From Escherichia coli (GTDB taxonomy: Bacteria > Pseudomonadota > Gammaproteobacteria > Enterobacterales > Enterobacteriaceae), in NCBI RefSeq assembly GCF_013122565.1, contig NZ_CP053258.1: 64,000 bases of DNA, one strand, 5' to 3'. This document shows, in pieces, positions 37,929-39,136 of this stretch. The notes beneath the pieces are model-generated. The model ran no database searches. It had not been told where the DNA came from and worked only from the letters and a program-made list of their open reading frames with translations. Made by a program: the position numbers and the translations under genes. Positions within the stretch are counted from its first letter, which is position 1, and each line of letters opens with the position of its first letter.

Positions 37929-38138
37929 TTAGTTAGAGTTAATTAGCTTATCAATCTCTGTAAGAGGTAAAGTTGTCACCTCTGCAACGTCTTCCCGAGA
38001 CATCCCTTTACTTAGAAAACGCTGGGCGAATTCCTGTCTTACCTTCTGGAGTTCCTCTTGATATCCCTTCTGAAATCCCTTCTCTTCAAACCACTGCGCC
38101 AACGTCTGCCTGGTTTCTCTCCGTGTCTTTATTTCCAT
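37929..38138 (-). CDS. Stand-alone small ORF (69 aa) homologous to the C-terminal tail of RpnC; candidate RpnS-like small protein
   Basis: ATG at 38138 preceded by AAGGGA; product MEIKTRRETRQTLAQWFEEKGFQKGYQEELQKVRQEFAQRFLSKGMSREDVAEVTTLPLTEIDKLINSN aligns with the last ~50 residues of the adjacent rpnC product; the nucleotide sequence is a diverged (~85% by eye) direct repeat of the rpnC 3' end. Confidence 0.6.
   Translation of the reverse strand: MEIKTRRETRQTLAQWFEEKGFQKGYQEELQKVRQEFAQRFLSKGMSREDVAEVTTLPLTEIDKLINSN
37931..38100. repeat. Copy A of a diverged tandem duplication of the rpnC 3' end
   Basis: By-eye alignment to 38204..38350 with several substitutions and a ~20-nt indel; boundaries approximate. 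Confidence 0.6.
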
Positions 38139-38203
38139 AGGTTCCCTTAATTATCTGGTCAGTTAACAATAACAATTATCTGGCTATAACTGATGATGCA
38201 GAC

Positions 38204-38350
38204 AACTTAGTTAATCAGCTTATCAATCTCGGCAAGGGGTAAATTTGCCATCTCTGCAACGTCTTCCCGAGACATTCCTTTATTCAGAAGACGCAGGGCG
38301 AATTCTTGCCTTTCCTCCTGTCTTCCCCTCTCTTCAAACCACTGCGCCAG
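38204..38350. repeat. Copy B of the tandem duplication (the actual 3' end of rpnC)
   Basis: Direct repeat partner of 37931..38100; boundaries approximate. Confidence 0.6.
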
Positions 38351-38359
38351 CGTCATCAT
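38207..38359 (-). CDS. Candidate intragenic in-frame small protein within the rpnC 3' end (RpnS-like, 50 aa)
   Basis: In-frame ATG-ATG at 38359..38354 inside rpnC, preceded on the minus strand by a strong SD (gggaggggag) about 4-5 nt upstream; would encode MMTLAQWFEERGRQEERQEFALRLLNKGMSREDVAEMANLPLAEIDKLIN. Expression untested. Confidence 0.35.
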   Translation of the reverse strand: MMTLAQWFEERGRQEERQEFALRLLNKGMSREDVAEMANLPLAEIDKLIN

Positions 38360-39136
38360 AGACTCCCCTCCCGTTTCCCTGTCTCTCAACACACTGTAAA
38401 ACAAATCCGCTTGTTCAGTATGACCGCGTTGCAGCATATAGTTTTGCATGGCAACTAACTGACTTCCGCTAGTGTACCCTTCGTCGATCAGCGTGACCAG
38501 TTGCTCCAGCAATAACATTAAGTCGCGCTGGCGAATATGTTTTTGCAGTAGTTCGAGAATCGCAATCCGCCGATGTTGCATGATTTCGTCATCCGGTGTG
38601 ATGGTGATATCCACCAGCGGGAAAGGACTGTTATAGACGCGTCGTGCCAGCTCCGGCGAGTAAAACATATCAAACCAGCACATTGAGAGCGGATAAGGTG
38701 TGGCCTCGCCCTGATAAAACAGTATCGGCACCACCAGCGGCAGCTTATCGTGATCCGCCTCCAGATGCCGGTGCATGGCAGCAATAGAATAACGCATCAT
38801 GCGAAAGGCCATTTTCTTATCCGGCTTGCTTTGGTGTTCAATCACAACATGCAGATAACCGGGATTGCCCTGCATTTGCACGGAATAGAGCACGTCCGTG
38901 CTGTGTCCTTTCAGGCTCTCTTCAATGAAACTCCCCGACTCTAAATGAAGCGTGTTGAGGTCACAAAGTTCGCGTAATTCCACTGGCAAATGTATCTCCA
39001 GAAAGTCGCGAGCCGTCTCCGCATGCATTAAAAATTGTTTAAATACCGCATCATGCGGTGTGGTACTCGGTGCATCCATCTTCCCTGCCTTCCGTGTTGT
39101 CTTGCGTGAAGGCAGTATCCAGTCAAGGTGTGCCAT
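38207..39136 (-). CDS. rpnC: Recombination-promoting nuclease RpnC (YhgA-like, transposase_31 / PD-(D/E)XK family)
   Basis: 309-aa track ORF; conserved Rpn N-terminal motif TTPHDAVFKQFL and nuclease-like core (VVIEHQSK); sits between panC and panD as yadD does in K-12. Alternative start at Met20 (39079, MDAPSTTPHDAVF). Confidence 0.82.
   Translation of the reverse strand: MAHLDWILPSRKTTRKAGKMDAPSTTPHDAVFKQFLMHAETARDFLEIHLPVELRELCDLNTLHLESGSFIEESLKGHSTDVLYSVQMQGNPGYLHVVIEHQSKPDKKMAFRMMRYSIAAMHRHLEADHDKLPLVVPILFYQGEATPYPLSMCWFDMFYSPELARRVYNSPFPLVDITITPDDEIMQHRRIAILELLQKHIRQRDLMLLLEQLVTLIDEGYTSGSQLVAMQNYMLQRGHTEQADLFYSVLRDRETGGESMMTLAQWFEERGRQEERQEFALRLLNKGMSREDVAEMANLPLAEIDKLIN

Follow-up and report, generated by a model that had tools for sequence, protein, structure and literature searches.

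The rpnC gene of the window, i.e., of the whole stretch of 64,000 nucleotides of Escherichia coli DNA (contig NZ_CP053258.1) analysed here, is followed on the same strand by a small ORF, rpnC_Ss, which ends close to the convergent gene panC. The features of this locus are:

38207..39079, minus strand: rpnC (RpnC_L), gene of a PD-(D/E)XK YhgA-like nuclease, 290 aa
38207..38359, minus strand: rpnC_S, predicted intragenic antitoxin frame of rpnC, 50 aa (MMTLAQWFEE...LIN), read from the sequence
38207..38353, minus strand: direct-repeat copy 1, the rpnC tail, with the helix-1 variable segment RGRQ-EERQ
38139..38206, minus strand: 68-nt spacer between the rpnC stop and the rpnC_Ss ATG, containing the rpnC_Ss Shine-Dalgarno sequence (SD)
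37929..38138, minus strand: rpnC_Ss, 69-aa stand-alone ORF with an ATG start, encoding a leader and a copy of the Rpn C-terminal domain
37929..38105, minus strand: direct-repeat copy 2, with the helix-1 variable segment KGFQ-KGYQ-EELQ-KVRQ
38059..38083, minus strand: 12-nt tandem unit in 2.1 copies (TRF), encoding KGFQ KGY
37838..37868, no strand assigned: GC-rich, terminator-like hairpin with a 12-bp stem, between the convergent panC and rpnC_Ss

The product of rpnC matches the Pfam family Transposase_31 (PF04754, E 3e-87) and the TIGR01784 profile of the Rpn family (E 1e-80), and it is 95% identical to RpnC of K-12, the first 240 aa differing at a single position (239/240 identities). The longest ORF of the gene starts at 39136, and 39079 is the start assigned by PGAP and other gene callers and the one homologous to that of K-12; the stop codon is at 38209..38207 of the minus strand. 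Rpn proteins are PD-(D/E)XK nucleases with toxic activity, and the small proteins that inhibit them are translated from the 3' end of the same gene (PMC10400941); in this respect the original prediction agrees with the results of Zhong et al. 2023. They form a family of antiphage toxin-antitoxin systems, recognised only recently, whose antitoxin is made from within the toxin gene. In K-12, ribosome profiling and SPA tagging have demonstrated that RpnC_S is translated (Zhong et al. 2023, PMC10400941). The corresponding frame of the window begins with ATG ATG (38359..38354) preceded by the SD GAGGGGAG (38370..38363), and its start context, GGESMMTLAQWFEE, is identical in K-12; judged by this counterpart, rpnC_S is a predicted internal antitoxin frame.

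The proposal that the rpnC tail recurs downstream as a diverged direct repeat is confirmed at the protein and DNA levels. BLASTP aligns rpnC_Ss with RpnC at 41/64 identical positions (E 3e-22), far more than expected by chance; the small protein has a single insertion of 8 aa. At the DNA level, the two copies (38353..38207 and 38105..37929) show about 80% identity and differ by 24-nt and 6-nt indels, both in frame. The diverged copy of the RpnC tail comprises residues 12-67 of rpnC_Ss and is preceded by a new 11-aa leader, MEIKTRRETRQ. The own ATG (38138) and SD (AAGGGA, 38148..38143) of the 69-aa ORF are present as described, and its distance of 68 nt from the rpnC stop, on the same strand, is exact. 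The similarity of the two copies outruns the ORFs: it begins at ~AGACA(G/C)GG, ahead of the internal start, and reaches about 18 nt beyond the stop codon (TAAGTTGTCTGC.T.AT). As proposed, the small ORF is a stand-alone paralogue of the tail that arose by partial duplication. The segment from WFEE to GMSREDV comprises 2 units and 17 residues in the RpnC tail, and 4 units and 25 residues in rpnC_Ss, which also has 2 extra C-terminal residues (SN). The tandem array at 38059..38083 is the only one detected by TRF at this locus of the window; in the upstream tail of other strains the 12-nt unit is present in 8.8-10.8 copies.

The first ~18 nt of the spacer belong to the duplicated unit, and the remainder is AT-rich filler with two copies of CCAGATAATT and the SD of rpnC_Ss. 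A search of 5426 E. coli genomes (blastn, word size 11) matched this filler of ~50 nt only to the rpnC-Ss locus; therefore, neither the 5' region of rpnC nor the rpnE-ypaA spacer is detectable as its source. Since the spacer contains no terminator-like site and its RNA folds no better than shuffled sequences (z +1.0), the suggested co-transcription of rpnC and rpnC_Ss is plausible. A scan for consensus promoters revealed none within the spacer that could serve rpnC_Ss; a lone promoter-like site of the minus strand, at the 3' end of rpnC_Ss, looks like a chance occurrence. The 3' region of rpnC_Ss folds with z -3.0, and the hairpin at 37838..37868 is likely the shared terminator of panC and rpnC_Ss. 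The distance between the panC and rpnC stops is 373 bp here vs. 73 bp in K-12 JM109, consistent with the ~70 bp originally stated for K-12.

The assignment of the rpnC_Ss product to the Rpn family is supported by its match to positions 213-273 (of 273) of TIGR01784 (E 2.8e-8). No Pfam-A family was matched, and DUF4351 (PF14261) was absent even at E <= 10. Precomputed matches to HTH_Rpn_C (PF27070) are available for close Ss homologues, including P0052 and P0020, and for an RpnC protein; the Pfam-A copy used by us gave no PF27070 match for rpnC_Ss or for P0052, a close homologue for which our scan indicated no significant family. In the AF2 model of rpnC_Ss (pLDDT 69, moderate confidence) helices are formed by residues 6-19, 22-43, 48-55, and 59-68. 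Superposition of this model on the crystal structure of RpnA_S (7TH0) gave 0.8 A over 41 positions and a TM score of 0.83 normalised to the target, which suggests that rpnC_Ss would adopt the three-helix-bundle fold of RpnS proteins. The Foldseek E value for 7TH0 was 2.6, and no Foldseek match was significant for so small a domain. The link to 7TH0 came through fold comparison only, as single-sequence and profile searches of PDB sequences did not find this structure, their only matches being a designed 'CAP repeat' protein and weak HTH similarities. In a PADLOC scan RpnC had no match, and rpnC_Ss weakly matched the C-terminus of RmrA, which is unexplained.

The small ORF of the window is one allele of a gene that has already been described and named rpnC_Ss by Zhong et al. 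2023 (PNAS 120:e2307382120, PMC10400941, Fig. 2I), and does not represent a new kind of system. As in that description, it is a separate rpnC_S copy just downstream of rpnC at the locus panD-rpnC-Ss-panC, is derived from rpnC, and occurs only in some E. coli, being lost by deletion or fusion. The accompanying commentary also discusses rpnC_Ss and proposes that toxin and antitoxin become decoupled through a second copy of RpnS, which would allow more flexible regulation. A literature search found no later work on Ss function. What our analysis adds to the study of Zhong et al. is a count of carriers among complete genomes, the presence of the gene in E. marmotae, the boundaries of the duplication, and a systematic length mismatch.

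The spacer and leader were found in 1555/5426 complete E. coli genomes, as well as in E. marmotae, while K-12 has a single tail and no Ss at rpnC, so that the extra copy is strain-specific, as had been supposed. The 298-bp panC-rpnC gap of O157:H7 strains was considered as an Ss remnant and rejected, as it results from an unrelated repeat-element insertion. Public assemblies list the exact rpnC_Ss protein in 11038 blocks, and in 10/10 assembly places that were read the gene order is panD-rpnC-Ss-panC. In 49/49 two-copy loci a same-strand ORF lies 3' of rpnC, at the distance of 68 nt in all, with four sequence variants of the spacer. The Ss ORF, ATG, and SD are intact in 13/13 two-copy loci sampled without regard to ORF state, and in E. 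marmotae too. Ss indels among strains are all in frame, and the Ss proteins are of 65, 69, 73, or 77 aa, varying in length by 4-aa units of KGFQ type. Thus, broken or drifting frames and loss of start signals were not seen in the sampled two-copy loci, and the one exception, in a genome outside the 13 unbiased loci, is an Ss disrupted by an IS3 insertion. The pN/pS of Ss is 0.59 vs. 0.39 for the functional internal tail. From these sequence comparisons rpnC_Ss looks like a maintained gene.

The length of helix 1, with its variable segment, was shown in K-12 to set the partner specificity of RpnC (PMC10400941). RpnC_S with one extra 4-aa repeat fails to counteract RpnC_L (Zhong et al. 2023, PMC10400941). 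The published test was done on K-12 RpnC with one added KGIE unit (PMC10400941), and from a test with this single unit it cannot be concluded that binding is lost with any mismatch in length. Among the 49 two-copy loci the WFEE-to-GMSREDV segment comprises 17, 25, 33, 37, 41, 45, 49, or 57 residues in RpnC, and 21, 23, 25, or 27 residues in Ss. The two lengths are equal in 0/49 loci (at least 17 distinct pairs, kinship being ignored), of which pairs only about 8 could have matched, as two classes of Ss alleles have a deletion of 2 aa. A single Ss allele adjoins RpnC proteins of 306, 310, 314, 318, and 322 aa; hence, Ss alleles stay constant while the partner array shifts in 4-aa steps, and there is no co-variation of Ss and RpnC. 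In the loci sampled, arrays of 33-57 residues or the minimal form of 17 residues occur almost only in Ss carriers, and the single-copy loci that were read all have 21-25 residues (11/11). It is a possibility that, in strains carrying Ss, the resident rpnC array is pushed by it towards lengths other than that of Ss. The mismatch is not confined to rpnC, as YpaA (RpnE_Ss) of K-12 has one unit (KLEG) more than RpnE_S.

We consider it somewhat probable that rpnC_Ss is a second copy of the RpnS/HTH_Rpn_C domain that serves as a decoupled module of alternative specificity and as a recombination substrate. The 3' end of rpnC would have been duplicated from a point shortly before the internal start to one ~18 nt beyond the stop, with ~50 nt of filler DNA supplying the new SD, ATG, and 11-aa leader. 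The gene would be transcribed together with rpnC or rpnC_S up to the hairpin shared with panC, and then translated, and its product would fold as the RpnS three-helix bundle and dimerise via its long first helix. Because helix length sets specificity and differs between the two proteins, Ss most likely pairs mainly with itself and would be at best a weak inhibitor of the adjacent RpnC_L. Some cross-binding to RpnC may occur, since Ss keeps the flanks of helix 1, TLAQWFEE and QEFAQRFLSKGMSREDV. As a substrate for homologous recombination, Ss could lead to replacement or deletion of the rpnC tail.

The original prediction was that of a trans-acting antitoxin of the neighbouring RpnC, i.e., a protein that binds the C-terminal domain of RpnC_L, blocks the nuclease, and adds to or buffers the action of RpnC_S. 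It is in keeping with the homology of Ss to the antitoxin domain, with the same-strand arrangement of both genes with no terminator between them, and with the role of RpnS proteins as proven antitoxins (PMC10400941), and decoupling by a second RpnS copy is suggested in the commentary. However, this part of the prediction conflicts with the published repeat-length rule: the numbers of helix-1 units here are not equal (4 in Ss vs. 2 in RpnC), the lengths differ at every locus examined as well as at K-12 rpnE/ypaA, a mismatch of one repeat abolished the action of RpnC_S on RpnC_L, and the partner arrays change by 4 aa beside constant Ss alleles. From the length mismatch and the published specificity rule it follows that Ss should not be the cognate antitoxin; rpnC_Ss is probably not a simple spare antitoxin, and we judge the cognate role unlikely. 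Still less probable is a non-functional remnant, a decaying by-product of duplication that is untranslated or has no role. The identical ORF of strain CP53 is labelled by PGAP as a pseudogene fragment ('incomplete, missing N-terminus'), ypaA is a pseudogene in the annotation of NC_000913.3, the pN/pS value indicates weak constraint only, no Pfam-A family is matched, many lineages have lost or fused Ss, and an IS3 insertion disrupts it in one genome. Nevertheless, the intact reading frame, start codon, and SD of Ss in both E. coli and E. marmotae, the restriction of indels to in-frame ones, including 4-aa unit variation of Ss itself, the presence of exact Ss protein alleles in ~10,000 or more assembly blocks each, and the translation of RpnE_Ss in K-12 argue against decay.

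The traces of exchange between the two copies may also suggest that the locus stores an alternative tail, used to switch the specificity of rpnC by gene conversion or deletion, with the Ss protein itself of minor importance. The single-copy allele of locus L015 bears an Ss-type 3' end and is a fusion allele, the Ss of locus L008 bears an end of single-copy type, L008 and L014 have mosaic 3' ends, and the K-12 RpnC tail ends with the two extra codons typically seen in Ss copies; fusion alleles of the N-terminal domain and the Ss region have also been reported (PMC10400941). However, a deletion cannot be undone and removes the cassette, a silent store needs no conserved start codon, SD, and leader of Ss, and no directed switching mechanism is evident. 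As the primary role of the second copy, such a cassette is considered very improbable.

It is conceivable, although rather improbable, that RpnC_Ss and YpaA are kept mismatched to their neighbours; on this reading they would not neutralise the resident RpnL and could instead act as an orthogonal module. Such a module could sense, or act as a decoy for, a phage factor directed against RpnS-type domains; alternatively, it could be an inhibitor reserved for RpnC variants of other helix length. A detached copy of an antitoxin domain is a natural place to ask how the specificities of toxin and antitoxin uncouple, and the finding that the helix lengths of this copy and its neighbour are in no case the same, here or at K-12 rpnE/ypaA, is a useful lead. 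The prediction regarding the cognate antitoxin can be tested with existing assays, and the outcome would clarify what Ss genes do.

The K-12 analogue of rpnC_Ss is ypaA/rpnE_Ss, which is likewise a stand-alone tail copy directly 3' of its parent rpn gene, has an origin independent of rpnC_Ss, and is translated, as detected by SPA tagging (PMC10400941). It differs in being a clean tandem duplicate with the parental SD and internal start kept and a 12-nt spacer, whereas rpnC_Ss has lost the internal ATG and has a new leader, and a new SD within its 68-nt spacer. The intragenic RpnS proteins (RpnA_S, RpnB_S, RpnC_S, and RpnP2_S; 7TH0) represent the same domain as Ss, with a long helix 1 containing variable 4-aa units and two short helices that follow. 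RpnS is translated inside the rpn gene and therefore necessarily co-varies with RpnL, while Ss is a separate gene that shows no co-variation; antitoxin activity was shown for RpnS, and for no Ss. In some species, stand-alone RpnS genes are labelled DUF4351 (PF14261), and such proteins, as well as type II toxin-antitoxin systems, resemble rpnC_Ss in that a small helical HTH-like protein is encoded beside a toxic nuclease. The locus of the window differs from them in the position of the toxin gene, which is first, and in the origin of the candidate antitoxin, which is a paralogue of a part of the toxin.

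The window contains a second, stand-alone copy of the rpnC tail downstream of rpnC itself. The relevant reading frames are as follows:

38207-39079, minus strand: rpnC, from its stop end (38207) to the homologous start (39079; 290 aa); the longest ORF starts at 39136
38354-38359, minus strand: ATGATG (38359..38354) of the internal 50-aa RpnC_S frame within rpnC, preceded by GAGGGGAG; K-12 has the same sequence context
37929-38138, minus strand: Ss ORF (ATG at 38138, end at 37929), 69 aa, 68 nt beyond the rpnC stop

The original prediction of a tail repeat with its own ATG and SD sequence, 69 codons long and 68 nt away from rpnC, is borne out by ORF reading and BLASTP. 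The motif AAGGGA lies 5-10 nt upstream of the Ss ATG, and Ss residues 4-67 align to RpnC residues 254-309 (numbering of the 309-aa long ORF) with 41 of 64 residues identical (E 3e-22) and a single insertion of 8 residues in Ss. The two DNA copies are ~80% identical, with indels of 24 and 6 nt. The panC-rpnC gap is 373 bp in the window vs. 73 bp in K-12, in agreement with the ~70 bp given for K-12 in the original prediction, all of whose factual statements are confirmed. The rpnC end at 39136 given in the same prediction is correct in that the longer ORF reaches there, but annotation and K-12 homology favour 39079, which is the choice of PGAP in CP53 (a 99.8%-identical strain) and of other gene callers, and which aligns with residue 1 of K-12 RpnC. 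Upstream of this start, the frame is open for 19 codons (39080-39136, minus strand; MAHLDWILPSRKTTRKAGK-MDAPSTT). RpnC contains the YhgA-like PD-(D/E)XK domain (PF04754, E 3e-87), and its residues 1-240 are identical to those of K-12 RpnC at 239/240 positions; thus, the divergence of RpnC is entirely in its tail.

The gene has been named rpnC_Ss by Zhong et al. 2023 (PMC10400941), and the second copy is mentioned also in the accompanying commentary. The window feature is therefore this published gene, correctly rediscovered: the interpretation of Ss as an RpnC-tail copy stands, but the feature is not new. That paper showed, in line with the original prediction, that toxic full-length RpnL nucleases are bound and inhibited by RpnS proteins translated from internal starts within rpn genes; it also showed that the Rpn system can play a role in defence against phage. 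No antitoxin assay on any Ss protein is found in the available text of PMC10400941, and our literature search found no later paper testing an Ss function.

The 109-nt spacer-plus-leader is specific to the two-copy state and was used as its marker. Of 5426 complete E. coli genomes, 1555 (28.7%) carry it, which agrees with the supposed strain specificity of the second copy. Its single, always chromosomal occurrence in each carrier genome and its identity of at least 95% in all of them but two argue for a single origin of the arrangement. Escherichia marmotae has this arrangement as well. The exact 69-aa Ss protein was found in ~11,000 blocks of public assemblies, and the gene order panD-rpnC-Ss-panC at 10/10 inspected places.

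The Ss frame, ATG and SD sequence are intact in 13/13 two-copy loci picked by DNA similarity, a choice unbiased as to the ORF. The 68-nt spacer is invariant in length among 49 two-copy loci, and in the nine distinct Ss DNA alleles every indel is in frame, the variation in four-residue units yielding proteins of 65, 69, 73 and 77 aa. The pN/pS ratio is 0.59 for Ss vs. 0.39 for the internal tail, which is known to be functional. Among 60 sampled spacer-carrying genomes, Ss is disrupted only in E. coli AF10 (NZ_OZ546911.1; locus L061, 1201-2469), where an IS3-family transposase gene ~103 nt past the rpnC stop splits it. PGAP labels for Ss vary (hypothetical protein, transposase, RpnC/YadD family protein; pseudogene fragment in CP53).

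Neither a terminator-like site nor a stable fold (z +1.0) is present in the rpnC-Ss spacer, while the region 3' of Ss folds strongly (z -3.0) into a GC-rich hairpin common to the convergent panC. The simplest reading is that Ss would be co-transcribed with rpnC and would also lie on the short internal transcript that has been reported for rpn genes. A 10-nt CCAGATAATT occurs in the spacer twice, 21 nt apart (38151-38179, minus strand), each time with a -10-like GATAAT; no fitting -35 element was found in this spacer.

As shown in PMC10400941, specificity depends on how many four-residue repeats helix 1 contains: adding one repeat to RpnC_S abolishes its ability to counteract RpnC_L, and vice versa, a single added repeat being the extent of the published test. 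At 49 two-copy loci (at least 17 distinct pairs), we determined the length of the WFEE-to-GMSREDV segment in each of the two copies. It has 17, 25, 33, 37, 41, 45, 49 or 57 residues in the resident RpnC tail (20 distinct DNA alleles) and 21, 23, 25 or 27 residues in Ss (9 distinct DNA alleles). The lengths in the same strain are equal at 0/49 loci, kinship ignored, only ~8 distinct pairs being able to match in principle. In the window, the RpnC segment has 17 residues (RGRQ-EERQ) vs. 25 in Ss (KGFQ-KGYQ-EELQ-KVRQ). One Ss allele adjoins RpnC proteins of 306, 310, 314, 318 and 322 aa, which indicates that the upstream array grows and shrinks while Ss stays constant. Consistently, the upstream 12-nt arrays are near-perfect (8.8-10.8 copies, 90-94% match), whereas Ss contains just 2-3 degenerate 12-nt units. 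A 2-residue deletion places two Ss allele classes outside the four-residue series altogether. In 11/11 inspected single-copy loci the segment has 21-25 residues, as is implied also by the match spans of 28/28 single-copy hits of the "spread" sample; long arrays (33-57) or the minimal 17-residue form are almost confined to Ss carriers in the L001-L060 panel of comparison loci, kinship ignored.

The K-12 analogue ypaA (rpnE_Ss), translated according to PMC10400941, forms an independently derived pair that is likewise mismatched: YpaA has one KLEG unit more than the internal RpnE_S. Unlike rpnC_Ss, which has lost the parental ATGATG and acquired a new 11-aa leader, ypaA duplicates its parent's tail cleanly in tandem, with the parental SD sequence and start kept and only a 12-nt spacer. 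In E. coli K-12 MG1655 (region NC_000913.3 2356904-2358001; locus L055, 3905-5002), the 61-aa ypaA is annotated as a pseudogene despite its reported translation.

Homology between the two rpnC copies extends from ~AGACA(G/C)GG just upstream of the internal start to ~18 nt beyond the stop. The ~50 nt between them are AT-rich, include both CCAGATAATT copies, are the source of the new SD sequence and ATG, and have no other match in the 5426 complete E. coli genomes. The 3' end of the single-copy allele in L015 is of the Ss type (..LINSN) and matches L003, and the Ss of L008 has the 3' end of the single-copy locus L014. These mosaic ends show that recombination between the copies reshapes or deletes tails, as PMC10400941 noted, which describes loss of Ss via deletion or via fusion between the N-terminal domain and the Ss region. 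The paper also concludes that each Ss derives from its own upstream gene.

In the AF2 model of Ss (pLDDT 69), residues 6-43 form a long first helix with a kink, followed by two short ones. The model superposes most tightly on 7TH0, the crystal structure of RpnA_S (TM 0.83; 0.8 A over 41 positions); for so small a domain, all Foldseek hits, including 7TH0, fall short of statistical significance, and the remaining ones are HTH domains. Close Ss homologues have a precomputed match to PF27070 (HTH_Rpn_C), and a Pfam-A scan gave no DUF4351 match for Ss. Residues 21-67 weakly match the C-terminal end of RmrA in PADLOC (PDLC03946, E 5e-4), which may reflect a common HTH-like C-terminal module; RpnC itself has no PADLOC match.

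On balance we favour, with some reserve, the view that Ss is an expressed but decoupled module of the RpnS type that fits its neighbour poorly. Such a module would dimerise via helix 1 by self-pairing and, because of the helix-1 length mismatch, would inhibit the neighbouring RpnC_L poorly at best, with weak cross-inhibition; it would also supply homology for tail replacement. The identity of Ss, its conservation, its fold similarity, the length mismatch and the mosaic alleles are observed, and expression, self-pairing and weak cross-inhibition are predicted. The originally proposed role of Ss as a cognate second antitoxin acting in trans appears rather doubtful to us, although the conserved helix-1 flanks are kept in Ss. 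That Ss is a non-functional remnant is improbable given the conservation of its frame and start signals across species, and a main role as a recombination cassette, which would leave the conserved translation signals unexplained, seems very improbable.

In O157:H7 F1273 (locus L017, 1094-1391), the panC-rpnC gap is 298 bp and lacks the Ss copy; its extra ~200 bp sit past the shared hairpin and resemble an ERIC/IRU-type intergenic repeat element. In E. coli TB4328 (locus L018, 1-1471), the type III effector gene nleA lies on the usual panC side of rpnC, and the RpnC tail has a different C-terminal extension (..VITLLKDDKII), which points to a breakpoint within the rpnC 3' end, left by an insertion or a rearrangement. 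Two ordinary E. coli features of the window with no relation to Ss passed the Rfam gathering threshold:

62916-63029, plus strand: tp2 sRNA (103 bits)
5084-5129, minus strand: HtrA 5' UTR thermometer (77 bits)
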